DNA from: Patescibacteria group bacterium
GTDB lineage: Bacteria > Patescibacteriota > Microgenomatia > Levybacterales > UBA12049
Assembly: GCA_023484045.1 (NCBI GenBank)
Contig: JAMDAA010000001.1
Span: forward strand, 1 to 46,950
Reading direction: 5' to 3'
Length of the DNA stretch: 46,950 nucleotides
The notes under the pieces are model-generated. The model worked only from the letters and a program-made list of their open reading frames with translations, was not told the origin of the DNA and searched no databases. Every line of letters starts with the position of its first letter. Within the stretch, counting starts at the first letter, position 1. The position numbers were made by a program, and so were the translations under genes. Of the stretch, positions 5,814-36,560 are shown in pieces.

Positions 5814-7925
5814 ATGGCAAAAAGGAGACATTATAAGAAAAGACACTTCAAGGTTAAACTTCGAAAAGAAACTATATATTCGATTTTTGCTTTTGGTTTA
5901 ATACTCGCCGGCGTGCTTTTGTTTCTGTCTTTTTCCCGGTCGGGCGAAAATTTTGTTTTGGTAAGCGATCTTTTCTCTCAGAAATTCGGTTTCATGTCTT
6001 ACCTTTTTCCGTTTGTTTTAATTCTTTTTGGTCTATTTTTCCTACGACTTAGGATATTTTTATCCAAACCTAATGTCTCGATCGGTTTTGCGATTTTTTT
6101 TGTTTCACTTTTATCATTAGGGAAAAGCGGAGAAATAGGAAAAAGTATTTTTTCGACCCTTACCGAAATTTTAACCGTCGCCGGAGCGGATGCTGTTTTT
6201 ATTGCAGGGCTCGCCGTTGGTATAATCGTTATGTTTAATACATCAATCGATGAAATTTTTTCTGCAATAGCTTTTGCGTATAAAAACATTCATCGGTTAT
6301 TTCCGGGTAGAATATTTTCTGTTTTTAAAACAAAAAGGCCATTGCTTGTCCAATCAAAAGGGATCGCGATAAAAGGTGAACAAAAAGAATTAATGGGGTC
6401 GTCTTCTAAAAACGCCATTCCCTCCTTAGCATTAAAAAGAGAACCTGCTTTTCTTTCTGAAAAACTTGTCAGTAATACTTTGCAGGGGCAAATTTGGGAA
6501 TATCCGCCACTTAATCTTTTGTCCGATTCTGCCGGACATAAGGCAAACAGAGGAGATATTAAGAAAATAGCGAGCGTCATCGAAAAAACACTCCAGAGTT
6601 TTGGAATAGAAGCGCGGGTCGCAGAAGTTAATTTGGGTCCGGCTGTTACACAATACGCACTGGAGATCGCGCTCGGTACGAAAGTTTCTAAAATAACTTC
6701 GTTATCGAATGATTTAGCACTTGCGACCGAAGCGCCGACGGGACAGATAAGGATTGAAGCCCCTATCCCTGGAAGAAATTTAGTCGGAATCGAAATTCCA
6801 AACCGTTCTTTAGAAATTGTTTCTCTTAAAACGATGCTCGCATCGAATGTTATGCAAAAAAGTAAATCAAAACTTACTGTTTCTTTGGGTCTTGATGTTT
6901 CGGGTACTCCGGTCGTCGCAAACATAGCGAAGATGCCTCACGTTTTAATCGCTGGAACTACCGGTTCCGGAAAATCGGTATTGATTAATTCTTTTATATC
7001 CTCTCTTCTTTTTAGGGCATCACCAGCGGAAGTAAAACTTATACTGATCGATCCAAAAAGAGTGGAATTAACAGGTTACAACGGTATTCCACATTTATTA
7101 CATCCGGTAATCGTCGAATCAGACAAAATTTTATCGGCATTAAAATGGGCGATGGGAGAAATGGATAGACGTTATAAGATTTTTGCTGAAGCAAACGTAC
7201 GAAATATTGATTCATACAATGAACTTTCGGCTTTTCAGGCACTTCCCTATATCGTGATTTTTATTGATGAACTTGCGGATTTAATGGCATTTGCGCCGGT
7301 CGATGTCGAAGACGCGATCGCGCGTTTGGCCCAGATGGCGCGTGCTACGGGAATTCATCTTGTGGTTTCGACTCAAAGGCCATCTGTCGATGTATTAACA
7401 GGGCTTATTAAGGCGAATATTCCATGCAGAGTTGCGTTTAATGTATCTTCGATGATCGATTCGCGTGTTATTCTCGACACGCCGGGCGCGGAAAAACTTT
7501 TGGGTCGGGGAGACATGCTTTATATTCCGCCGGAACAAGCAAAACCGACTAGGATACAAGGTGCGTTTGTGTCGGACGGAGATGTTAAGAAACTCGTTGA
7601 TTACCTTAAATCCAAAGCGCCGGCCGTTGAGTATACAGAGGAAGTCACGAGTCAAAAAGTCACCCTTAAAAAAGGAGGAATCGCAGTCAGCTCTGATGGT
7701 CGTGATCCGTTTATTGAAGAGGCGATTAGAGTTATTTGCCAATTTGATAAAGCTTCGGCGTCGCTTCTTCAGAGACGTCTTAAGGTTGGTTACGCAAGAG
7801 CGGCGAGAATTTTGGATGAACTCGAAGGAATGGGAATTGTCGGACCGGGAGAAGGATCAAAACCACGAGACGTATTGGTTAAAAATGCGGACGAAATTAT
7901 TAATAATCTAAATGGCGGACAATAA
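5814..7925 (+). CDS. ftsK: DNA translocase FtsK/SpoIIIE
   Basis: N-terminal TM segments; PHVLIAGTTGSGKS Walker A; IFIDELADLM; C-terminal gamma domain (SASLLQRRLKVGYARAARI). Confidence 0.96.
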   Translation: MAKRRHYKKRHFKVKLRKETIYSIFAFGLILAGVLLFLSFSRSGENFVLVSDLFSQKFGFMSYLFPFVLILFGLFFLRLRIFLSKPNVSIGFAIFFVSLLSLGKSGEIGKSIFSTLTEILTVAGADAVFIAGLAVGIIVMFNTSIDEIFSAIAFAYKNIHRLFPGRIFSVFKTKRPLLVQSKGIAIKGEQKELMGSSSKNAIPSLALKREPAFLSEKLVSNTLQGQIWEYPPLNLLSDSAGHKANRGDIKKIASVIEKTLQSFGIEARVAEVNLGPAVTQYALEIALGTKVSKITSLSNDLALATEAPTGQIRIEAPIPGRNLVGIEIPNRSLEIVSLKTMLASNVMQKSKSKLTVSLGLDVSGTPVVANIAKMPHVLIAGTTGSGKSVLINSFISSLLFRASPAEVKLILIDPKRVELTGYNGIPHLLHPVIVESDKILSALKWAMGEMDRRYKIFAEANVRNIDSYNELSAFQALPYIVIFIDELADLMAFAPVDVEDAIARLAQMARATGIHLVVSTQRPSVDVLTGLIKANIPCRVAFNVSSMIDSRVILDTPGAEKLLGRGDMLYIPPEQAKPTRIQGAFVSDGDVKKLVDYLKSKAPAVEYTEEVTSQKVTLKKGGIAVSSDGRDPFIEEAIRVICQFDKASASLLQRRLKVGYARAARILDELEGMGIVGPGEGSKPRDVLVKNADEIINNLNGGQ

Positions 7926-7936
7926 AATTTTAAATT

Positions 7937-8578
7937 ATGTTAAAAATCGGTCAGAAACTCCGTGAAGAGCGCGTAAAAAAGAATTTAACCTTAGAAGAAA
8001 TTTCTAAAGCTACAAAAATTCGGGCTTCTTTTCTTTCTGCGATCGAAAAAGGGGATTATAAAAAACTTCCGTCACCTACTTACGCACAGGGATTCGTCAA
8101 AAATTACGCTGAATTTTTAGGTTTGTCATCGAATAAAGCATCAGCGCTTTTGAGACGCGAATTTGATGAGGAAAAAGCGCTCAGAATTTTACCGAAAGGA
8201 TTAGCAGGAAAAGAAGATTTTCCGGTTGAGGGAATAAAAATCCGAAAAATTCCGATAATCATAATTTTGATTTTTTTAATAGTTTTAGGTTATATAATTT
8301 TTCAATATAGATACACTTTCTTAAATCCGCCTCTAGAAATTAATTCCCCGAAAGAAAATGCAGTTATTGATTCGGAGATTGTTGAAATTTCAGGTAAAAC
8401 AGATTCAAATTCGATGGTATCGGTTAACAATAATCCGATTTCTGTTTCTGACGATGGGACATTTAAAAAAGATATTGATTTATTTCCCGGAAAATCGACG
8501 ATTAAAATAAAGGTGACCAACCGTTTTGGTAAAGAAACAATTATCGAGCGCCACGTCGAAATTAAACCTGGTTCTTGA
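7937..8578 (+). CDS. RodZ-like XRE HTH protein with TM helix and C-terminal Ig-like domain
   Basis: IGQKLREER...TLEEISKATKIR.SFL.AIE.G.Y..LP...YAQGF RodZ-type HTH; hydrophobic stretch; beta-rich C-terminus; follows ftsK. Confidence 0.8.
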   Translation: MLKIGQKLREERVKKNLTLEEISKATKIRASFLSAIEKGDYKKLPSPTYAQGFVKNYAEFLGLSSNKASALLRREFDEEKALRILPKGLAGKEDFPVEGIKIRKIPIIIILIFLIVLGYIIFQYRYTFLNPPLEINSPKENAVIDSEIVEISGKTDSNSMVSVNNNPISVSDDGTFKKDIDLFPGKSTIKIKVTNRFGKETIIERHVEIKPGS

Positions 8579-8603
8579 CATAAAAGCGTAAGTAGAGTAA
8601 CCT
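8575..8603 (+). promoter_or_regulatory. promoter, predicted leaderless
   Basis: TTGACA (8575-8580), 17 nt, TAACCT (8598-8603), 7 nt, ATG 8611. Confidence 0.6.
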
Positions 8604-8610
8604 ATTTTAT

Positions 8611-8901
8611 ATGATAGATGCTGCCCAACCAGTTCTTCTTTTAGTAATAATCGTTTTAGCATTCCTTCTTTTAATTTTAGGGATTCAAGTATTTTTTATT
8701 TTACGGGAACTTCGTCGGACGATTTCTAAAGCAAACAAAATTTTAGACGACACGGGTGTTATAACGGAAAGCGTTTCGAAGCCAATATCATCTTTGTCGA
8801 GCGTCGTGTCGGGAATAAAAACTGGGGTAAATTTCGCGAATTTTTTCAAAAGTAAATTCTATAAAGAGGACGAATCCGAAGGGAAAAAAAATAAAGACTG
8901 A
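8611..8901 (+). CDS. small membrane protein, DUF948/YtxG-like
   Basis: N-terminal TM helix then amphipathic heptad helix (LRELRRTISKANKILDD); paired with a YtxH-like gene. Confidence 0.6.
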   Translation: MIDAAQPVLLLVIIVLAFLLLILGIQVFFILRELRRTISKANKILDDTGVITESVSKPISSLSSVVSGIKTGVNFANFFKSKFYKEDESEGKKNKD

Positions 8902-8908
8902 GGAATTT

Positions 8909-9286
8909 ATGGACTACTGTGACAAAAAAAATAAATCAGGGAGTAGTTTTTTTAACGGATTTATATGGGGCGCTGTAATGGGTGCGGGAGTTTGTTATTT
9001 TTTAACGACAAAAACGGGCAAAAAACTTATAAAAAAATTAACAACAGATGGGTTGGAAGGAGTAACAGAAGTTACAAATTTAATAAGGGAAGAAGTAAAA
9101 CACTCTGAAGAGCCGCAAGTGCAGGATGATTTTGAAGAAGAGGCTGAAGAAGAAATTAAAACAAACGGCCATAAAAAAACTCAAGAGTCACCGATTAGAA
9201 AAATCACAACCTCAACCCAATCCTTAACCAAAGGTTTCGGAGGGCAAGCAAAACGATTTTTCAAAGGTATCCCCAAAAGAAGCTAA
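8909..9286 (+). CDS. YtxH-like protein
   Basis: FFNGFIWGAVMGAGVCYFLTTKTGKKLIKK matches the YtxH N-terminal pattern. Confidence 0.7.
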   Translation: MDYCDKKNKSGSSFFNGFIWGAVMGAGVCYFLTTKTGKKLIKKLTTDGLEGVTEVTNLIREEVKHSEEPQVQDDFEEEAEEEIKTNGHKKTQESPIRKITTSTQSLTKGFGGQAKRFFKGIPKRS

Positions 9287-9357
9287 ATCAAAGAATAATA
9301 TCTATTTTTCAAAAGGTTTCCTATAAAATTATTACTGGCTTAACCTCAATCCTTAAA

Positions 9358-9388
9358 TCTAATAATCTAGAATCTAGATCGTTAGACT
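9358..9388. repeat. short tcta/taga palindromic element, copy 1
   Basis: tctaataatctagaatctagatcgttagact; tctaataatctaga recurs exactly at 9617-9630. Confidence 0.55.
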
Positions 9389-9575
9389 ATTTAACCATTA
9401 TTAATGTCATCAATTGATGGACTAATGAACTTGTTTTGATGTCTTGAAACATTGAAAACAATTCAGTTTTTGGAATAAGACAAACAGAAATTGTGTTTTA
9501 TTATTTACTGAATGTTTCTCCGTGTGAAAGAGAATACGAAAGAAAAGATTTTTCTCTAGTAATTTAAATTTGTTT

Positions 9576-9596
9576 TTATAATCCGTATTTTTGGAT
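9576..9596. repeat. 21-bp direct repeat (copy of the mltG 3' end)
   Basis: ttataatccgtatttttggat, identical to 11270-11290. Confidence 0.9.
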
Positions 9597-9611
9597 GTTT
9601 GTGCCGAGTCT

Positions 9612-9640
9612 TCTAGTCTAATAATCTAGATCATTAGATT
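9612..9640. repeat. short tcta/taga palindromic element, copy 2
   Basis: tctagtctaataatctagatcattagatt; tctaat/attaga arms around atctagat. Confidence 0.55.
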
Positions 9641-9760
9641 AAAGTGATCAAATTTCCATATCTTACTAACTTCAAGAGATTGAACAATTTAGGGGCAAGA
9701 TTTTTTGCGGAGTACTTAAACTTAAAAAAAAGCTGAAATTAGTGGCGTTCAGTAGAACTT

Positions 9761-9769
9761 TGTTATAAT
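9761..9769 (+). promoter_or_regulatory. extended -10 promoter, predicted leaderless
   Basis: TGtTATAAT, 6 nt, ATG 9776. Confidence 0.55.
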
Positions 9770-9775
9770 ACATTT

Positions 9776-10936
9776 ATGACAGAAACAGGGGAATCAGATT
9801 CTCTTTTAGTCCAAAAAGATAATCCAGGAAGAGTCCTAATTCCTAATTCCAATACTGAAAGCGCAAATTTTACAGAACACTCTATCGGATATAAAAGTAA
9901 AGATTTACAACTTGAGTTTATTAAGCGGTGTATTGAGAATCTGGCGGTAAGGAGAGCCAGTGGGGGCAGAGAATCTGTTATAAATAGACAAAAAATTGAT
10001 GAAATTATAGAATCGATGGAACAGTCGTTTCGGGCAGTCGAAGAACAACCAACTATTTTTGATGTTGATTTTAAAGTACCGGAGGGTTTTGACTTGGAAA
10101 ATCAAGCAAAAAAAGCACTGGGGGATGCTGTAAAAATTATTTATGAATCCGGAATTTTTGACAGAGATATTTTAGTAGACGCTTCAAGATTTGCCGGTCC
10201 CGGTAACACTAAAATAATACAAGACAGGGAAGAATCCCGTTTAAATGTTGTTGACTATTTAAGGATGCTCGACAAAAAACGCCCGAATAGAAGGCAATTT
10301 TTACCTGTTCCGAAAAATAAAGGCGTAAGAAACGAAACAATAACATTAGAAATAGGAGAAAAAGCTCTAATGTATCTCGCAAGCCAGTTTTTGACTAATG
10401 CAAGATTTGTCGGATTAGATTTAGATTGGTCAGATGCTCTAAATTTGGCCTTAATTCTTAGCACTACACATGAGTACGCACATACAATTGATTTTGCGTT
10501 AGATACTAAAGGACGATCAACGCTAGTAAGAGCAGAAAAAGCTGGTTTTTTTAATGAAGAATATTGGAAAGATAGCGGTTTTGAAAAAAGAAGAGTTCAC
10601 CAAGAATGGTTTGCGAGGGGAGTTGAGAAGATGGTATTAAAAAGATATATGCAAAACATATTAAAATATCCTTCGGAAAAAATTGAATCATTATTCCTTT
10701 CTTTTCAAAAAGAAGACTTGGATCTGGCAAAAAAATCTTTCGACATAGTTCAGATTGGTAATAATAAAGGCATGAATGCTCGTGCGTTATCGGAAATTAT
10801 TTGGCTTGATCTTGAAAATGTAGTAGACGATGGTTCACGAGAATATAAAAGGATTCCAGATATTTTTTCTGTAATTAGTTATGGAGCAGAACCATATTCA
10901 GAGGATAAATTAAGACAACTTGCGGGAAAATCTTGA
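9776..10936 (+). CDS. hypothetical protein with HExxH zinc-binding motif (putative zincin metallopeptidase)
   Basis: 386 aa; STTHEYAHTID plus a downstream helix with Glu (HQEWFARGVE); no signal peptide seen. Confidence 0.55.
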   Translation: MTETGESDSLLVQKDNPGRVLIPNSNTESANFTEHSIGYKSKDLQLEFIKRCIENLAVRRASGGRESVINRQKIDEIIESMEQSFRAVEEQPTIFDVDFKVPEGFDLENQAKKALGDAVKIIYESGIFDRDILVDASRFAGPGNTKIIQDREESRLNVVDYLRMLDKKRPNRRQFLPVPKNKGVRNETITLEIGEKALMYLASQFLTNARFVGLDLDWSDALNLALILSTTHEYAHTIDFALDTKGRSTLVRAEKAGFFNEEYWKDSGFEKRRVHQEWFARGVEKMVLKRYMQNILKYPSEKIESLFLSFQKEDLDLAKKSFDIVQIGNNKGMNARALSEIIWLDLENVVDDGSREYKRIPDIFSVISYGAEPYSEDKLRQLAGKS

Positions 10937-10968
10937 CCAAAAGATTAATAGGGTATAATATTATTTCA

Positions 10969-11223
10969 ATGGCAGAGAATTCAGGAGAGATAAATACGGC
11001 AGTCACGGATCAGTTAGCAGTAGCTGATAAAAGTGTTGCTAAAAGTGTAAAGCGGTTTGCAGAGGCGAAGGGAAAGATGGAGGGAATTGAAGAGAAGGTT
11101 GGGCGACTAAATCAACGAATACCCCACATTCCTCCTGTTCAAAAGACCCCAGAAGATTTAAAAAGGGAGTCAGAAATAGAAGAAGAACTTCAGAAAATAA
11201 AACGGGAAGAACTAGGAAAATAA
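10969..11223 (+). CDS. hypothetical charged helical protein (84 aa)
   Basis: ATG 9 nt after TATAAT (10954-10959), TTGACC at 10933 (15-nt spacer, suboptimal); E/K-rich coiled-coil-like. Confidence 0.6.
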   Translation: MAENSGEINTAVTDQLAVADKSVAKSVKRFAEAKGKMEGIEEKVGRLNQRIPHIPPVQKTPEDLKRESEIEEELQKIKREELGK

Positions 11224-11269
11224 AATCAACAATACAACGCTTTTTCCACGAAACCCTAAGAAAAGCTAA

Positions 11270-11290
11270 TTATAATCCGTATTTTTGGAT
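11270..11290. repeat. 21-bp direct repeat, copy within the mltG 3' end
   Basis: identical to 9576-9596; on the minus strand encodes IQKYGL-stop. Confidence 0.9.
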
Positions 11291-12229
11291 ATTGGCGTTG
11301 TGTTCACTTATTGTTTTTGCGTAGTGATTATGGCCGGATTTATCAGATAAATAATAAAAATAATCGGTGCTCGCGGGGTTAATAACCGCTTTTATCGAAT
11401 CGAGTCCGGGGTTTGAGATCGGGCCGGGGGGTAGGCCGACATTTATATAAGTATTATAAGGAGAATCTAATTTTAAATCTTCTATAGTTAAAGATTTTTT
11501 CCACCAGGATTTTTCATCGAGCTGATAACCTAATATGTACTGGATTGTCGCATCGATCTGAAGCGGCATTCCGAGTTCCAATCGATTCATAATAACAGAC
11601 GCAATAAGCGGTCGATCTTCGGGATATTTTGCCTCTCTTTCGATTAGCGACGCAATAGTAATGATTTTATTTTTAGATAATTTTATTTTATTTTGTGGTG
11701 TTATACTTTCGTATTTTGTCTCAAAATTATTTTTAAACATCGAGATAATAAGATTGATATCGGCGTCTTTCGGAATAAGATAAGTATCGGGAAAAAGATA
11801 TCCCTCGTTGTCGATAAGAATTTTTTTCCAAGTCGGTTTATACGTCACTAAATTTGATTGTAAAATCTCGGCTATTTCTTCGGCGCGTTTTCCTTCCGGA
11901 ATCGTAACCCAAACGTCGAGGCTTCCGTGAGTTAAATTTTCCGCGACTTCTTCAGCACTCATGGAGGGGGAAAGTCTGAAATCTCCGGCCTGAATATTTT
12001 TTTCGATCCCTAATTTTTTGATCAAAATAAAAAACACAACAGGATCTCTTATTAGTTTTTTATCTTTAAGATTATTTGATATTTCTCTTACGCCTTCACC
12101 CTTATTTACAACAAAAATTACCTGTGATTTATTAGATTTATTTGTAGGGGAAAGACCGTTATTCCACCAAAATAAACCGGCGACTAAAATAACAACAAGT
12201 ATAATACAAAAAATCAATATTCTCTTCAT
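11270..12229 (-). CDS. mltG: endolytic murein transglycosylase MltG
   Basis: N-terminal TM; TIPEG, EGYLFPDTY, ASLIERE (catalytic Glu), LQIDATIQY, SPYNTY, GLPPGPISNPG. Confidence 0.96.
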   Translation of the reverse strand: MKRILIFCIILVVILVAGLFWWNNGLSPTNKSNKSQVIFVVNKGEGVREISNNLKDKKLIRDPVVFFILIKKLGIEKNIQAGDFRLSPSMSAEEVAENLTHGSLDVWVTIPEGKRAEEIAEILQSNLVTYKPTWKKILIDNEGYLFPDTYLIPKDADINLIISMFKNNFETKYESITPQNKIKLSKNKIITIASLIEREAKYPEDRPLIASVIMNRLELGMPLQIDATIQYILGYQLDEKSWWKKSLTIEDLKLDSPYNTYINVGLPPGPISNPGLDSIKAVINPASTDYFYYLSDKSGHNHYAKTISEHNANIQKYGL

Positions 12230-12243
12230 TTAATTTTTGTCAT

Positions 12244-13521
12244 TCAATACTCGATAATCGGGAAATTAACGATCGAGTCTTTTCCTTCCTTGAGATTATA
12301 CACGTTTTCACTAAAAAGTGTATAGATTATTTCTCCCTTCTGTATTTTTTCACCGATTTTCTTATTCAAAAAAATTCCTGCACCTTTTTGTTTCGGCGCG
12401 CCCAAAACTTTTGTGACGATCGTCGCGTTTTTACTGTGAATTTGTTTGACTGTTCCGCTTTTTTTGGCTTTAACTTCAAACAAATGTTTTCCGGGTTGCA
12501 GATCTTCACTATCGATATCAGGATTCCCACCTTGGGCCTTAATTATCTCCTGCATTTTTTTAAATGCGTCGCCCGACTGTAAAATATTGGTTGCCCAACC
12601 GATCGAATTTCCGTAGTTTTTTTTGACATCATTTTTTAATTTTTCCGATGAATCTTTTAGACAGAGATCAAGTAGGTTTCCGGCGAGATTTAAAGCCCTA
12701 ATTTCAAGATCAACCGGCCGATTTTCTTTTTGTTGTAAAACTCTGATTGCTTCCCTTGTTTCAAGAATCGGACCGATACCGCGTCCGGCCGGCTCGTCGG
12801 TTCTATGAGTAAGTACTTTTATTTTTATGTCAAATTTTCCTGCGAGATATTCAAATTTATCTTTAAGAATATTTGCGTCTTTGATCGTATGAACTTTTAC
12901 CATTTCGCCGTAGGGGAGATCAATCACTACATGGTTTGACCCGAATGCTATTTTTTTTGCCATGATCGATACTAAAATTTTGTCAAAACTTTCGAAAAGT
13001 AGTGGTTCTTCAACATGTATGATAATGTCGTCGGCCGGTGCAATTTTAAAACTTCCTCCCCAAACAATACACCCGTTTGTTTTCTCGACGATCTTATAAA
13101 TTTGTTCTCGCGTAAATGTTACAGGTGCTAAAACTTCCATGTCATCTGCGGTCCCGCCGGGAGTCGTTATTGCGCGCGATGAACTTTTCGGAATCGTAAA
13201 TCCGGCCGATGCGACAATCGGTACAACGATTAAGGTAGTTCTTGTTCCTGGAACGCCTCCGATAGAATGTTTGTCTGCGACGATTCCTTTAAACTTTAAT
13301 TTTTCACCGGTTTCGACCATCGCTTTTGTCAAATAATAAAGTTCCTGATTGGAAAAACCTTTTGAGTAACCCGATGCGGCAAAATAAGTTGTCAAAACAT
13401 TACTCAATTTTTTACTCGAAATTTGATCCATTATCGCATAAAGTTCTTCGTAGTTTAATTTTTTTCCGACTAATTTTTTCCTGATCGCGTCAAGCGCCAG
13501 GCTTTCGTTTCCATCTGTCAT
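12244..13521 (-). CDS. AMP phosphorylase-type / thymidine phosphorylase family nucleoside phosphorylase
   Basis: DKHSIGGVPG and IPKSSSRAITTPGGTAD are the archaeal AMP-phosphorylase-like variants of the family motifs; SD aaggag upstream. Confidence 0.85.
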   Translation of the reverse strand: MTDGNESLALDAIRKKLVGKKLNYEELYAIMDQISSKKLSNVLTTYFAASGYSKGFSNQELYYLTKAMVETGEKLKFKGIVADKHSIGGVPGTRTTLIVVPIVASAGFTIPKSSSRAITTPGGTADDMEVLAPVTFTREQIYKIVEKTNGCIVWGGSFKIAPADDIIIHVEEPLLFESFDKILVSIMAKKIAFGSNHVVIDLPYGEMVKVHTIKDANILKDKFEYLAGKFDIKIKVLTHRTDEPAGRGIGPILETREAIRVLQQKENRPVDLEIRALNLAGNLLDLCLKDSSEKLKNDVKKNYGNSIGWATNILQSGDAFKKMQEIIKAQGGNPDIDSEDLQPGKHLFEVKAKKSGTVKQIHSKNATIVTKVLGAPKQKGAGIFLNKKIGEKIQKGEIIYTLFSENVYNLKEGKDSIVNFPIIEY

Positions 13522-31869: not shown

Positions 31870-32353
31870 ATGAATTTTAGAAATTCTTTGCTTGAAATAA
31901 TTTTTAACTCTTTTAAATGGGCGAGGAATAATACAATTGAAATTTTAGAACAGGCAGAACAGAATAATATTCTTTCTTTCACTCCCAAAAATTCAAAATT
32001 TACTTTTCAGTCGATTGCTTTTCAATTTCAATGCATTGTCACAACAACAGATACTTATTTATCGAAAATTAACAAAAAACAATAATCAACAGTTTGGAGT
32101 TTTACTGCAAAAAGGCAAGATTCTTAATAAGAAAGATATTGAGACAGAAGAATTAAAAAAATTATTAAAATCACAGCTTGTTGTTTTGGAGGAATTACTT
32201 AGAGATTTTGACGAAGATCAAATTAAAGATAATATCGAGTCGATAATATCACTATTAAGTCATGAACATCTTCATCAAGGTCAGCTTGTTGTAATGCTTA
32301 GAGAAGCGGGAATAGATTTACCCGAGAGGTTTAAAAAATCTTGGAATATATGA
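31870..32353 (+). pseudogene. DinB/DUF664-like protein split by a 1-nt insertion near 32058-32060
   Basis: ORFs 31870-32085 and 32015-32353 join as ...TTTDTY|YRKLTK... if one T is removed from tatttatcga, giving 160 aa; C-terminal HEHLHQGQL DinB-type His motif. Confidence 0.75.
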
Positions 32354-32907
32354 AACAAGGAAGAGTGGTTTTTGAAGGAACAACAAAAAAGGAGAATAAA
32401 ATAGTAATCAGATATGTTACAAGATATGACGCTCCGGAAATGCGAAGGCTAATAAATGAAATTTCAAAAGAAAAATCATTTATACGATTTCAAGGGGAGG
32501 AAATTAGTGTCGAGGAGGAAGAAAAATATCTTAAGGAGGAGCTTAATAAAGTTGAAAAGGGAACAGCAGTGAAACTTCATGCGTTTTTCGAAGATAAACT
32601 TATCGGAGTAGCAGACATTCATCTAAGAGATAAAGTTGAGAACCATGAGGGTACATTCGGGATAATAGTCGCAAAAGAATTTCGGGGAGAAGGAATCGGA
32701 AGGTTATTAATGGAATTTGCTTTAAAAGAAGCAGAAAAAGAGCTTCTGGGACTTAGAATTATCACGCTCGGTGTTTTCGGAGGAAATGATTTAGCTGAGA
32801 AAATGTATAAGAGCTTCGGATTTAAAGAATACGGAAGACTTCCTGAGGGAATTTTGAGAAGAGGAAAATACATAGATCACGTTTTTATGTATAAAAAGAT
32901 AAGGTAA
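32350..32907 (+). CDS. GNAT family N-acetyltransferase
   Basis: IVAKEFRGEGIGRLLM acetyl-CoA motif, N..A..MY.SFGFKEYG; ATGA overlap with the DinB stop. Confidence 0.92.
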   Translation: MKQGRVVFEGTTKKENKIVIRYVTRYDAPEMRRLINEISKEKSFIRFQGEEISVEEEEKYLKEELNKVEKGTAVKLHAFFEDKLIGVADIHLRDKVENHEGTFGIIVAKEFRGEGIGRLLMEFALKEAEKELLGLRIITLGVFGGNDLAEKMYKSFGFKEYGRLPEGILRRGKYIDHVFMYKKIR

Positions 32908-32955
32908 CTTCTCGTTTTATTTCTCCCCGTTGACTAAAAGAGGTAGAATTAAAGT

Positions 32956-34122
32956 ATGTTTAAAAAGATTCCGAAGAATGTTTTTGTTTTGGGATTGGTT
33001 AGTTTTTTCAACGACACGGCCTCGGAAATGGTTTATCCGATTATTCCGATATTTTTGACTTCGGTTTTGGGTGCCCCGATCTCAATAGTTGGTTTAATCG
33101 AGGGGATTGCCGAGGCGACAGCGTCGGTAATGAAATTTGTTTCGGGATATATTTCGGACAAAGCACAAAAGCGAAAAATTTTTGTTATCGGGGGATACGG
33201 ATTAGGCTCAATTTCTAAATTGTTAATCGGATTTGCGTATTCCTGGCCTTTTGTTCTTTTTGCGCGGTTTATCGATAGATTGGGAAAAGGAGTCAGGACT
33301 GCGGCGCGCGATTCACTCCTTTTACAAAATACCACGTCGCAGAATAAAGGTTATATTTTCGGTTTTCACCGCGCGATGGATTCGGCGGGGGCGGTCTTGG
33401 GACCATTATTAGCGATCCTTCTTTTAACATATTTTAATGAAAATATAAGGACGATTTTTTTCCTTGCGTTTATCCCTTCTTTTATCGGAGTTTTACTTTT
33501 AATAATTTTTGTCAGAGAAAAGAGACAAGAGAAAACAGGAGAAAAAATAAAAATAAAACTTAGATGGCGAGGTTTGAATTCAAAATTTCAATTATTTTTT
33601 ATAATCAGTATGATTTTTGCGCTTGGCAACAGTTCGGACGCATTTTTAATTTTAAGATCAAAACAACTTGGATTAACAACGGTTTTAGTCGTTTTAACCT
33701 ATGTTTTATATAATCTTTCGCAAACCATTTTTTCGACACCGGGTGGAAGACTCGCTGATAAAATCGGCGCGCGAAAAGTTTTTGCGTTCGGATTAATCGT
33801 TTTTGCGTTTGTGTATTTTGTTTTTGGAATAATTAATAATCCTCTATGGGTTTGGATCGTTTTTCCAGTCTACGGAATTTACATAGCATTCACAGACGGA
33901 GTTTCTAGAGCGTATATCAGTGAATTTGTCGAGCAGAGAGAATCGGGAACATATTTTGGGGTTTACCAAATGGGAATAGCCTTGTGTGGTTTTTTTGCAT
34001 CATTTATCGGAGGAATTTTATGGACAAGTTTTGGCCCGCAATGGACATTTTTCTTCGGCGCCATAATGGCAATTTTAGCCTTAATAATTCTTATTTATGG
34101 AAAAATCTTTAGTGAGATTTAG
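32956..34122 (+). CDS. MFS transporter
   Basis: about 12 hydrophobic segments; motif A variants GYISDKAQKRK and GRLADKIGARK; TAGAAT (32944-32949) 6 nt before the ATG. Confidence 0.92.
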   Translation: MFKKIPKNVFVLGLVSFFNDTASEMVYPIIPIFLTSVLGAPISIVGLIEGIAEATASVMKFVSGYISDKAQKRKIFVIGGYGLGSISKLLIGFAYSWPFVLFARFIDRLGKGVRTAARDSLLLQNTTSQNKGYIFGFHRAMDSAGAVLGPLLAILLLTYFNENIRTIFFLAFIPSFIGVLLLIIFVREKRQEKTGEKIKIKLRWRGLNSKFQLFFIISMIFALGNSSDAFLILRSKQLGLTTVLVVLTYVLYNLSQTIFSTPGGRLADKIGARKVFAFGLIVFAFVYFVFGIINNPLWVWIVFPVYGIYIAFTDGVSRAYISEFVEQRESGTYFGVYQMGIALCGFFASFIGGILWTSFGPQWTFFFGAIMAILALIILIYGKIFSEI

Positions 34123-34154
34123 TTCGATGGATTATATATAATATTACTAGGAAA

Positions 34155-34811
34155 ATGAGAAAATTTAATCCTGTTAGTTTTTTTTGGATCTTGCCTTATT
34201 GGATTGTTTTTACTTCTGGTTTTATTCTTTTTATAGTCATCGCTTTTAAGAGAAATTCCTTGATTGATCTTATCGAGGCGTTTGCATTCGTTTCATTAAT
34301 AGTCTTTTTCTATTTGATAAAAGCAAGATTCGGTTTAGTTTTTAATGAAAAAGAAATGCTTATAAACCACTTTACAGGAAAAAGGTATATAATTCCCGCG
34401 GAATCGATAAGAGGTGTTTTTGTAAGAAAGGGTATTGTGGGAAGAATTTTTGGCTTATCTGATTTATTTATAGAGTTTTTTGATCCAAAAGTCATGAATA
34501 AATATCCTATGAAATTTTTGGGTCTTCCTATTAAAGATGGTTCTCTTTTAGATTTTCCGGGTGTTTGGGGAAATTTAATTTGTATTCCCTCAGTGTCTTT
34601 AAAAAATGTAAATTTAATTACATCAGAAATTAATAGAATAACAGGAAAAAATTTTATAACAGCAGATTTAGGGGTGTCTTTTCCTTGGTACAGAAGGCTT
34701 TCAAAAATAAATTACTTTTTGTCTTTATCATTAATATTATTAATAACGGTTCTTGTTATAGTAGTTATAGTTTTATATTTTTTACTTAATTACTTTATTG
34801 CCAAACAGTAG
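34155..34811 (+). CDS. membrane protein with bacterial PH-like domain
   Basis: two N-terminal TM helices, IRGVFVRKGIVGRIFGLSDL pattern, C-terminal TM. Confidence 0.5.
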   Translation: MRKFNPVSFFWILPYWIVFTSGFILFIVIAFKRNSLIDLIEAFAFVSLIVFFYLIKARFGLVFNEKEMLINHFTGKRYIIPAESIRGVFVRKGIVGRIFGLSDLFIEFFDPKVMNKYPMKFLGLPIKDGSLLDFPGVWGNLICIPSVSLKNVNLITSEINRITGKNFITADLGVSFPWYRRLSKINYFLSLSLILLITVLVIVVIVLYFLLNYFIAKQ

Positions 34812-34825
34812 GGATTTTCTTTTAC

Positions 34826-34960
34826 ATGGAAGAATCTTCAAAAAAATCCGAAACCACTAAGCCAAAAAATTATGAATTTTTCAGGTGGATCGCGATTGGT
34901 TTTTCGATCGTCTCTTTTTTCACCGCAATCGCTATCATTTTATTTCTAATTTTTCATTAA
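34826..34960 (+). CDS. small tail-anchored membrane protein (44 aa), not in the ORF track
   Basis: MEESSKKSETTKPKNYEFFRWIAIGFSIVSFFTAIAIILFLIFH; fills the gap between neighbours. Confidence 0.55.
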   Translation: MEESSKKSETTKPKNYEFFRWIAIGFSIVSFFTAIAIILFLIFH

Positions 34961-34981
34961 ATTGCTTTGGGCTCTTTTTAA

Positions 34982-35010
34982 TTGACTCTGGAATCTAACT
35001 CTTCTACAAT
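34982..35010 (+). promoter_or_regulatory. promoter of the methyltransferase-like gene, predicted leaderless
   Basis: TTGACT (34982-34987), 17 nt, TACAAT (35005-35010), 7 nt, ATG 35018. Confidence 0.6.
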
Positions 35011-35017
35011 TCCCATT

Positions 35018-35704
35018 ATGGAAACAGATTATTTTAAAACAGATAGCATGCTGATTGCTGCGATAAAGGAACAAGAAAAGAAAAGGCCAAATTACAGAAG
35101 AGATAGAGGATTATTGGAATACAGCTATCTCATTGATCTTGATTTGCCTAGTATTTCTAGAAAATTTATTAGAGAGAAAGGATTTTTTAAATGGTACGAT
35201 ATGTGTTGCGGTGATTTTAATATTGGTAGAGATTTCGTCCATTCTTATTCTTCTCTCTTTCTCAATAAACTTGAAATAAGAGGCATAGATATAGATATCA
35301 AAACGCCGGAAGATCAAATTTCTTACGATGGGGCATTAATTATTAGTAAGGGAAATGTGATAAGCTATCCAATACCGCCTGATGTTGATTTAATTACTTG
35401 TGTTAACGGTCTCTATTTAATTGATGAAGTACTTGGATTTAATAAAGTTTGTGAAGCCATTGAGCATTGGTATAATTCCTTATCGGTGGGAGGATTACTT
35501 CTAACAATGAGAGAGCGTCCTTTAATTGGACACGGGACAAGCTCTTTTAATATTGCAAAATATCTCAAATCACAATTGGGAGACTCTGTAGAGGATCATG
35601 AATCCTCCTTACTTGAACCCATGGATCGTCATGACTATATCAGAATTACAAAATTAAGTCCTAATCACCTTAGTGTTCCTCGTTCTTTTGGAAGCTCTGT
35701 ATAA
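35018..35704 (+). CDS. class I SAM-dependent methyltransferase-like protein
   Basis: WYDMCCGDF motif I variant, IRGIDID motif II, DLIT.V motif IV, W.NSLSVGG. Confidence 0.55.
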   Translation: METDYFKTDSMLIAAIKEQEKKRPNYRRDRGLLEYSYLIDLDLPSISRKFIREKGFFKWYDMCCGDFNIGRDFVHSYSSLFLNKLEIRGIDIDIKTPEDQISYDGALIISKGNVISYPIPPDVDLITCVNGLYLIDEVLGFNKVCEAIEHWYNSLSVGGLLLTMRERPLIGHGTSSFNIAKYLKSQLGDSVEDHESSLLEPMDRHDYIRITKLSPNHLSVPRSFGSSV

Positions 35705-35735
35705 AATTATGTATTCACTTTAATGATATATATCA

Positions 35736-36182
35736 TTAAAGTATTTCAGAGGCTGATTTAATTGTATCTTTTATTTTCATTAATACATTTTTTGGGATTT
35801 TGAAGTTTTTATTATAAGGAGCGTAGTTTTTGCCCCAATTTTTGTCTTCGAAAGCTATTCCCTTAAAAACAACCTTTTTAGAATAGCGCGGAATAAAATG
35901 TAAATGAACGTGCCTTTCAACATTTCCCAAAGTCGCGTAATTAAACATATCGGCGCCGAAAACTTTTTTTACGACATCTCTTAAATTTTTGGTAATTTTA
36001 AACAACTCTTTTAATTCGTTTTCGTTAATGTCAAAAAAATCTTCGAGATGTCTTTTCAGTAAAATTACACATCTGCCTAAATAGTATTGATCTTCCTGCA
36101 ATCCTATTTTCCAATATTTATATTCTTTAATATCGAGTTTTTTATATTTCTCCGGCGGATTGCAAACTTCACACCCGTTGAT
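35736..36182 (-). CDS. HIT family hydrolase; frame open from an ATC at 36182
   Basis: HVHLH histidine triad; the in-frame extension upstream of the ORF-track TTG (36101) reads INGCEVCNPPEKYKKLDIKEYKYWKIG, including a CxxC. Confidence 0.8.
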   Translation of the reverse strand: MNGCEVCNPPEKYKKLDIKEYKYWKIGLQEDQYYLGRCVILLKRHLEDFFDINENELKELFKITKNLRDVVKKVFGADMFNYATLGNVERHVHLHFIPRYSKKVVFKGIAFEDKNWGKNYAPYNKNFKIPKNVLMKIKDTIKSASEIL

Positions 36183-36188
36183 TACTTG

Positions 36189-36197
36189 ATTATATCA
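36189..36197 (-). promoter_or_regulatory. extended -10 promoter of the HIT gene
   Basis: minus strand TGaTATAAT, 6 nt, ATC 36182. Confidence 0.6.
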
Positions 36198-36242
36198 AAA
36201 CATTTTTCATTTTTTATTAATTTATGTATAATAGCAAGCTAT

Positions 36243-36560
36243 ATGCTAGAAAGATTGATAAGTATCAAGACTCGAATTTGTAGAGAAATTTATATCTCCC
36301 CTGCAAAAGAATTGGAGGAATTTGCTTCGAAAGTTTTGCGGGGCGAGATTCCTGATTTTGCGGAAGGCGGCAAGAAAGTTCAATTAATCGATTTTTATGG
36401 GGATAGAGCCCGTTTTCGAATTCCTTGGGGAAAAGACGGACTGGAGAAAAGTTTTCATGCAGTAGTACATCCAGATACAGGACAAGTTTATTATAAATGT
36501 GAAGGTTTTTTTATGTCTGACAAACATGATTGGTCGAAAAATACTGATTTTGGGTCTTGA
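36243..36560 (+). CDS. hypothetical protein (105 aa)
   Basis: ATG 10 nt after TATAAT (36227-36232); the longer ORF-track start overlaps the HIT gene and its promoter. Confidence 0.6.
   Translation: MLERLISIKTRICREIYISPAKELEEFASKVLRGEIPDFAEGGKKVQLIDFYGDRARFRIPWGKDGLEKSFHAVVHPDTGQVYYKCEGFFMSDKHDWSKNTDFGS

Follow-up and report, generated by a model that had tools for sequence, protein, structure and literature searches.

The DNA analyzed here, referred to as the window, is a 46,950-bp stretch of contig JAMDAA010000001.1 (assembly GCA_023484045.1) from a bacterium of the Patescibacteria group, and this report concerns a small block of DNA, or islet, that lies between the 3′ ends of two convergent genes in it. 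One of the two is mltG, which encodes an endolytic transglycosylase of the YceG family and has homologs in the thousands, the named ones belonging to Levybacteria (Candidatus Levybacteria) or other Patescibacteria; the other encodes a YtxH-like protein and is called ytxH below. Both genes are intact at the islet locus. Between them lie two open reading frames (ORFs) of 386 and 84 aa, two copies of a palindrome, and displaced copies of gene ends (Table 1). The 21-mer TTATAATCCGTATTTTTGGAT occurs exactly twice on the plus strand of the window, with the copies 1694 bp apart from start to start. One copy (M) forms the last codons and the stop of mltG and the other (M′) lies on the far side of the two ORFs, as an earlier reading of this locus made without database searches (the sequence-only reading) had correctly described. 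Identity between the copies extends to 24 nt with one mismatch, and no further copy was found in the window when up to three mismatches were allowed.

Two Logan assemblies from different runs were 100% identical to the window over positions 7265-13381 and 8036-13381. Low-depth contigs from two further runs covered each repeat copy with 0 differences, and a run of a different study contributed pieces with 0 differences at 9166-9419 and 11013-11166. Across five runs of two studies, every covered part of the block thus has one and the same sequence. Because the independent assemblies and the pieces of further runs agree in this way, the islet sequence is real DNA, and an assembly artifact, which the sequence-only reading had raised as a possibility, is ruled out.

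We compared the locus with 26 related Levybacteria loci in which mltG converges on a ytxH-like gene. The relatives keep the gene order sortase, nucleoside/AMP phosphorylase, mltG, and, in the opposite orientation from mltG, ytxH-like, DUF948-like, rodZ-like, and ftsK. The distance between the stop codons of mltG and ytxH is -4 to 19 nt in 17 of these loci, 128-312 nt in six, and 810 nt in L008, where it holds two unrelated small ORFs; in the window, it is 1983 bp (9287-11269). In the closest relative (L005/L006; GCA_023485715.1 and a contig of the same sample; MltG 84% identical), the two stops abut with 0 bp between them, and a contig of run X5, from a relative of ~82% identity, joins the position equivalent to 9286 directly to that equivalent to 11313. 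The relatives' equivalent of the 21-mer occurs once only, at the end of mltG, and none of the 26 loci holds a second copy of its own mltG end. Since the relatives have small gaps and no second mltG end, the whole of 9287-11269 is counted as extra DNA. These results show that the block is a lineage-specific insertion in the convergent mltG-ytxH junction, and the empty site that the sequence-only reading had suggested looking for in related genomes is present at every related locus examined. That reading had also proposed an attachment-site (att)-bounded element without an integrase that used mltG, in place of a tRNA gene, as its target. The insertion, the lack of an integrase in the block, and an exact repeat with unlike flanks all stand, but the extra DNA measures 1983 bp and not 1694 bp. 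The end of a protein-coding gene is indeed involved, and no tRNA, tmRNA, or other Rfam family was detected in the window, so the site is not a tRNA-type att; the target, however, is the whole convergent junction of the mltG and ytxH ends, as a 57-nt fossil of ytxH indicates.

This fossil (Y′) abuts the mltG stop. In an anchored alignment to the ytxH end it scored 16 against a null of -4.9 +/- 3.8, a score reached by 3e-4 of the window's 42-mers, and in a local alignment to the ytxH end of L005 it scored 33, the best of 8492 random 70-mers reaching 29. Its identity is 41/58 to the window's own ytxH end (with a 33-nt extra segment of that gene left out), 38/58 to L005, and 45/61 to the L008 type, and its translation, KINNTT.LFPRN.PKKS*, compares with KLKSTTKRFFRGVPKKS*. 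The junction therefore has a duplicate of each of its gene ends, with the cargo placed between the copies that are not in use. Read in the sense of mltG, the order is mltG, M, Y′, the 84-aa ORF, the 386-aa ORF (both antisense), the palindrome copy pal2, 17 nt, M′, a 289-bp spacer that contains the palindrome copy pal1, and live ytxH.

Table 1 Features of the islet locus in the window, and genomic contexts of homologs of the 386-aa protein (designations beginning with L are loci).
Feature	Position	Strand	Description
ytxH-like gene (live)	8909..9286	+	125 aa, convergent with mltG; Pfam YtxH E = 1.7e-5, below the Pfam cut-off; synteny with relatives
Spacer	9287..9575		289 bp, ORF-free, from live ytxH stop to M′; six-frame translation shows only short ORFs; missing from most relatives
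pal1	9352..9390		second palindrome copy, inverted relative to pal2; 7-nt internal duplication; 66 nt after ytxH stop
M′, distal copy of 21-bp repeat	9576..9596	-	fossil mltG end; reads ...RLGTNIQKYGL* in mltG sense
pal2	9614..9644		palindrome AGTCTAATAATCTAGATCATTAGATTAAAG; 17 nt from distal repeat copy
Cargo gene 1	9776..10936	+	386-aa protein, uncharacterized family; HExxH...E motif (H232, E233, H236, E277), FAGPGN, C-terminal PYSE
Cargo gene 2	10969..11223	+	84-aa ORF (96 aa from TTG at 10933); predicted helical or coiled; last codons run into ytxH fossil
Y′, ytxH fossil	11213..11269	+	decayed ytxH 3′ end, 57 nt; abuts mltG stop (0 bp), as live ytxH end does in closest relative
M, proximal copy of 21-bp repeat	11270..11290	-	last six codons and stop of mltG (IQKYGL*)
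mltG	11270..12229	-	endolytic transglycosylase, YceG family; 319 aa, intact; Pfam PF02618 E = 1.2e-82, profile positions 1-275 of 275
386-aa homolog, L092 and L159	directly after gyrA, two lineages		no bracketing repeat
386-aa homolog, L158	inside suf operon		no bracketing repeat
386-aa homolog, L162	beside PD-(D/E)XK gene		no bracketing repeat
386-aa homolog, L093	L093:6928-8300		three copies of a ~57-nt repeat (TGAGCGGGTGAGGGGA...) on its flanks, the repeat being no host gene end; one copy overlaps stop codon
386-aa homolog, L090 and L091	behind secA, 2.8-kb block (L090:5330-8142)		bracketed by secA-end 16-mer

The 21-mer at 9576 might have nothing to do with the insertion, either matching by chance or being retained for some separate function; it is AT-rich and contains a TATAAT-like box. 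We give this explanation next to no probability. None of 100 shuffles contained a second copy, even at three mismatches, the mltG frame is kept through N-IQKYGL* and the stop, and the ytxH fossil in the matching position is independently significant.

The two unused gene ends have decayed unequally. Y′ differs from the live ytxH end at 29% of positions (71% identity), and M′ differs from M at 0 of 21, similarity then being lost abruptly on both sides. Had M′ decayed like Y′, the probability of a run of at least 21 matches in 29 nt would be 0.002. With its flanks (9573-9601), M′ matches the mltG end of L008 at 28/29 positions, as against 25/29 for the window's own mltG end. The order of the parts (M, Y′, cargo, M′, and the live ytxH end Y) is a circular permutation of the kind that a single crossover would produce if the chromosome recombined with a circle that bore a junction-like site together with the cargo. 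With moderate confidence, we propose that a small circular DNA entered the mltG-ytxH junction by one crossover (a Campbell-type insertion) and that the block is its fixed relic. The incoming circle would have carried the two genes and an attachment region, the latter being a short copy of a Levybacterial junction in which ~25-29 nt of an mltG end were joined directly to ~57 nt of a ytxH end. Strand exchange inside the 21 bp common to the circle and the chromosomal mltG end would then have given, in the mltG sense, mltG, the 21-mer, the ytxH-end fossil, the two antisense cargo genes, the palindrome, the 21-mer again, the 289-bp spacer, and live ytxH. The chromosome would already have contained the 289-bp spacer before the insertion; some relatives have 128-312 nt at this position. 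We infer the circular intermediate, the crossover within the 21-mer, the foreign, Levybacteria-derived attachment region, and an enzyme acting in trans, the last because neither the block nor the 47-kb window encodes a recombinase. Shared cores of 21 bp with unlike arms are typical of the att sites of tyrosine recombinases, and an enzyme of this type would fit the 21-bp core best; RecA acting on short homology is an alternative, for which 21 bp is close to the minimum length.

A local duplication without any mobile element would also give this order of parts (M, Y′, insert, M′, Y), and the fossil data fit it equally. Illegitimate repair at staggered breaks, or template switching, could have joined foreign or rearranged DNA at the junction and doubled ~85 bp of native sequence around the insert, after which the unused gene ends would have decayed; the 289-bp spacer would have come separately. 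Such an event needs no recombinase, matching the absence of one, and it agrees with the lack of any sign of mobility and with a GC content equal to that of the host. We nevertheless consider it unlikely. The two unused copies should then be equally old, yet their decay is unequal (p ~0.002), and a crossover core with arms of different origin fits this inequality better than two equally old native copies do. Direct contact between M′ and the live ytxH end would be expected, yet 289 bp separate them, so a second precise insertion would be needed. Finally, the flanks of M′, and Y′ as well, lean toward the sequence of another lineage, which speaks for recombining molecules of different origin and against the duplication of native DNA in place.

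A foreign origin of the gene ends would likewise be expected if a double-strand break at the mltG end had been repaired, by copying of the homing type, from a transformed Levybacterium donor allele that carried the cassette along with replacement gene ends. Mobile ORFs (mORFs) of fungal mitochondria similarly furnish a host gene with a new 3′ end and displace the old one. The cassette sits directly behind a conserved, intact gene and has a copy of that gene's last bases at its far end, as such copying would leave it, and the lean of the fossils to another lineage agrees with it too. We find this account improbable: the block lacks a nuclease gene, no match to any nuclease family was found for the 386-aa protein, the 289-bp spacer shows no recognizable remnant of a nuclease gene, and none of the 26 loci is a donor allele with the cassette at mltG.

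The sequence-only reading had described the cargo as two unrecognized genes with promoters of their own. Both ORFs are present, and the 386-aa protein belongs to a real family; the promoters are visible by eye only, and a consensus promoter scan returned 8 sites compared with 6.9 in shuffles, which is no excess. The by-eye candidates are the -10-like sequence TGTTATAAT at 9762-9770, which lies upstream of the 386-aa ORF, and TTGACC-N17-TAATAT at 10933-10961. Because just 5 nt separate TGTTATAAT from the start codon (ATG) of the 386-aa ORF, in front of which no Shine–Dalgarno sequence is visible (9762-9778), the arrangement suggests that its mRNA could be leaderless or near-leaderless. No RNA-seq run holds the cargo sequence.

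No close homolog of the 386-aa protein was found in ~15 billion proteins, and a word-indexed search of 5.8e9 clusters returned only the protein itself; a scan of genome contigs with it gave no match. A HMMER scan of 1.84e9 representatives identified 38 remote homologs of similar length and 21-32% identity, and those with an examined context are all in Patescibacteria or similar contigs. In a family alignment of 32 sequences, the HExxH motif and a Glu ~41 residues later are invariant or nearly so, and FAGPGN and a C-terminal PY(S/T)E are conserved. An AlphaFold2 model of the protein (predicted local distance difference test score [pLDDT] 85.8; predicted template modeling score [pTM] 0.85) is confident and mostly helical and places HExxH in a long helix. 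The protein had no match in Pfam, PHROGs, PADLOC, NCBIfam, or the PDB sequences; none of the 32 family members matched Pfam or NCBIfam; and Foldseek searches with the model returned nothing significant (best E = 0.57 against the PDB and 0.077 against BFVD). Judged by its conserved motif, the 386-aa protein is predicted to be a cytoplasmic zinc-dependent hydrolase of an undescribed family. The nearest analogy is with gluzincin-type zinc metallopeptidases, which likewise combine HExxH with a downstream Glu, but the family belongs by neither sequence nor fold to a described peptidase family, and its catalysis is a prediction only. For the 84-aa ORF, an orphan, there was no significant match in Pfam, PHROG, PADLOC, or NCBIfam, and tblastn found only the window's own contigs. 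No cargo protein matched the defense-system library.

The contexts of the 386-aa family in Table 1 are those of the loci examined and not a survey, and among them the secA locus is the one parallel to mltG. There, in a Levybacteria metagenome-assembled genome, a block behind secA encodes a 360-aa protein with the motif HEFSH and a 367-aa homolog of the 386-aa ORF. The 16-mer AAAAATGCCATTATCC, which specifies the secA codons KKCHYP and lies 16 nt before the secA stop, has an exact second copy 23 nt after the stop of the homolog, where it reads QKCHYPSLI*; none of 200 shuffles contained two matches. A third, weaker copy of the secA end (FKKCHMNSDLVQ*) lies between the two genes of the block. To judge from these repeats, the secA block is of the same design as the mltG locus, with the appearance of two cassettes piled up at a single gene end. 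The same bracket around homologous cargo is easier to explain by a shared mechanism than by separate local duplications. The 360-aa neighbor was tried as a further member of the family, and hhalign was negative in spite of its HExxH motif (HEFSH). In a separate observation, the gyrA gene of a related bacterium (L159:1127-4954) contains an intein with a LAGLIDADG domain, and the 386-aa homolog follows it directly.

The sequence-only reading had supposed that the islet is mobilized in trans, and an integrase-less cassette could still be moved today by a tyrosine recombinase encoded elsewhere, by the host Xer system, or by the 386-aa protein itself. The exact 21-bp direct repeat that brackets the cargo would suit such a cassette, as would the secA locus with its same design, homologous gene, and signs of two tandem cassettes. 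Present mobility and mobilization in trans, however, find no support in these data. The contigs of the five runs showed no presence/absence polymorphism of the block and contained no 1694-bp skip, no back-joint of the kind that a circle would give, and no empty site of the same strain, with the proviso that assembled contigs drop rare forms; contigs that skip the junction came only from relatives of ~82-84% identity. There is no close copy of the block anywhere, four homologs of the 386-aa protein lie in stable operon contexts without repeats, and the 21-mer contains only a 4-bp inverted repeat (ATCC...GGAT) and no likeness, by eye, to the conserved XerD arm of the dif consensus. An active cassette is accordingly an improbable explanation, in our estimation no better placed than repair from a donor allele. 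Nothing indicates that the block moves today, and the islet looks like a relic and not like an element shown to be mobile.

Several observations weigh against the Campbell-type insertion that we favor. The block, with a GC content of 0.33-0.38, does not differ from its flanks in this respect, neither the block nor the 47-kb window encodes an integrase or other recombinase, and the contigs of the five runs hold none of the joints just listed. The spacer that the insertion model demands on the chromosome beforehand is absent from the closest relative. The lean of M′ and Y′ toward the L008 type depends on few bases. The best relative of the cargo is only 32% identical, so that no circulating element has been sampled, and the two homologs after gyrA, the one in the suf operon, and the one beside the PD-(D/E)XK gene occupy ordinary tight contexts without bracketing repeats. 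No second example of such a cassette at mltG was seen among the 26 loci. The att reading needs a qualification as well: the 21-mer is strongly conserved in the mltG genes of Levybacteria (19-20 of 21 positions in relatives), so that a related donor might account for its exact identity just as well as a recombinase core.

Within the 289-bp spacer, we found weak third copies of both gene ends (p ~0.05 each, which is marginal). The spacer may be the stump of an earlier insertion or cassette, for which these copies and its copy of the palindrome are only a hint. A gene for a GIY-YIG protein or another small protein was sought in it by six-frame translation and rejected, the translation giving short ORFs only. 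The live ytxH gene carries, in this lineage, a specific 33-nt in-frame extra segment at 9216-9248 that is skipped in the contigs of relatives; as a side observation, the 17-nt string CTCAACCCAATCCTTAA (9211-9227) at the start of this segment recurs just left of pal1 (9339-9356). In L008 (L008:4627-5436), another Levybacterium of the same sample, a different two-ORF cargo of 130 and 140 aa stands at the mltG-ytxH junction without a duplication, and its 130-aa ORF matches phrog_4700 (function unknown). No bracketing repeats were found around this cargo or around the methyltransferase gene inserted in L097 and L095.

The palindrome AGTCTAATRATYTAGATCATTAGAYTAAAGT occurs twice in the window, in inverted orientation, and its two copies flank M′. 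The motif (AGTCTAATRATYTAGATCATTAGA..., 26-31 nt) was found once each in L094 (L094:2291-2321), L095 (L095:5853-5883), and L097 (L097:4371-4401), where, at ~90% identity, it adjoins an accessory S-adenosylmethionine-dependent methyltransferase gene inserted between the DUF948 gene and rodZ. It has a 10-6-10 layout and is conserved at 90% between lineages whose MltG proteins are 62% identical; viral contigs contained no copy. As RNA, pal1 would form a hairpin of -9.9 kcal/mol (z = -3.2), and pal2 folds weakly. We rejected the palindromes as strong terminators, given their weak folding (z = -0.5 to -3.2 in the window) and a consensus scan that calls no terminator there. We also considered the segment from pal1 to pal2 (9352-9644) as a miniature inverted-repeat transposable element that carries the 21-mer. 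Its ends are inverted and may be accompanied by a TTAAA duplication, but the 1.3 Mb of related loci hold nothing further of it than the single palindromes of L094, L095, and L097. The palindrome may be a terminator, a protein-binding site, or a cassette end.

The rest of the window is occupied by core genes, among them pnp, rnj, ftsK, rpoB, rpoC, and those for ribosomal proteins. At 32341-36560, fusA and tuf, which are usually adjacent in the str operon, are separated by genes for a GNAT acetyltransferase and an MFS transporter and three ORFs without a Pfam match, possibly a further case of DNA inserted into a core operon.

The genomes of ultra-small Patescibacteria are tiny and streamlined, gene gain in them is little understood, and small recombinase-less islets at gene ends have barely been described in bacteria of this type. 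The mltG locus offers a clean, datable case in which the empty site, the displaced gene ends, and the cargo can all be read, and it exposes an undescribed protein family with the motif of a zinc hydrolase, for which no relative was detected by fold. Viewed alongside the secA locus, it hints that the entry of small cassettes at the ends of conserved genes may recur as a route of gene gain in these bacteria. A bolder generalization, to which we give rather little credence, is that Levybacteria and perhaps other ultra-small bacteria harbor tiny recombinase-less cassettes at the 3′ ends of housekeeping genes. Such cassettes, with mltG here and secA in another genome as examples, would be marked by a gene-end duplication of 16-21 bp, by a capacity for tandem pile-up, and by an attachment region that mimics the target junction. 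Their mover would be an enzyme supplied in trans or the HExxH protein that they often carry, with the palindrome beside the core as its supposed binding site. For now, the locus stands as a well-documented relic and not as a new mobile system.

Comparison with known systems sets several of them aside. A transposon or insertion sequence does not fit, as terminal inverted repeats are lacking at 9597 and 11269, the 21-bp duplication (~85 bp with both fossils) is too long, and no transposase is present. Integron cassettes consist of a promoter-less ORF and an attC site, an imperfect palindrome of 57-141 bp with RYYYAAC/GTTRRRY ends, and stand in an array. The islet departs from this pattern, since its genes have -10 boxes by eye and its palindromes are 26-34 bp long, have AAT/ATT in place of AAC/GTT, and lie upstream of the cargo. 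The mORFs of fungal mitochondria and free-standing homing-endonuclease genes likewise sit at the end of a conserved gene, supply or preserve that end, and leave a displaced copy downstream, but they encode their own endonuclease and none is recognizable in the block. Integrative mobile elements exploiting Xer (CTX-phi, TLC, and the gonococcal genetic island) resemble the islet in lacking an integrase and in having direct target-site repeats, and the known ones use the host recombinase; an ftsK gene lies three genes from the block, which may be coincidence. We rejected membership in this group: the repeat is a gene end and not dif, and it has no pair of 11-bp arms around a 6-bp center and, by eye against the dif consensus, no match to the conserved XerD arm. 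pal1 and pal2 do have a 10-6-10 layout, but they do not bracket the cargo.

The islet comes closer to islands and prophages that tyrosine integrases insert at the 3′ end of a gene, for which they bring a replacement end; with these it shares a direct repeat at a gene end, an intact target, an empty site in relatives, and arm similarity beyond the core. It differs in size, the block being only ~1.7-2 kb, and in having no integrase, excisionase, phage, or conjugation gene. An ordinary integrase island was rejected, since repeats and an empty site are present but there are only two ORFs, neither of which matches a recombinase. No report of mltG as an att site was found in the literature searched. 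The closest known system is that of the cis-mobilizable elements (CIMEs), one of which reportedly lies beside ICESt1/ICESt3 at the 3′ end of fda in Streptococcus thermophilus. What defines a CIME is a cognate element that bears an integrase and shares its att site, and tandem accretion at one site is a known way in which they form. Like them, the block is small, encodes neither an integrase nor an excisionase, lies between att-type direct repeats behind a protein-coding housekeeping gene whose 3′ end they copy, and leaves its target intact, and the secA locus resembles tandem accretion. Unlike them, it has no cognate element at mltG in the 26 loci, it is at least 10 times smaller than typical CIMEs, it occurs in Patescibacteria, and what its attachment region copies is a convergent junction, with both of the genes.

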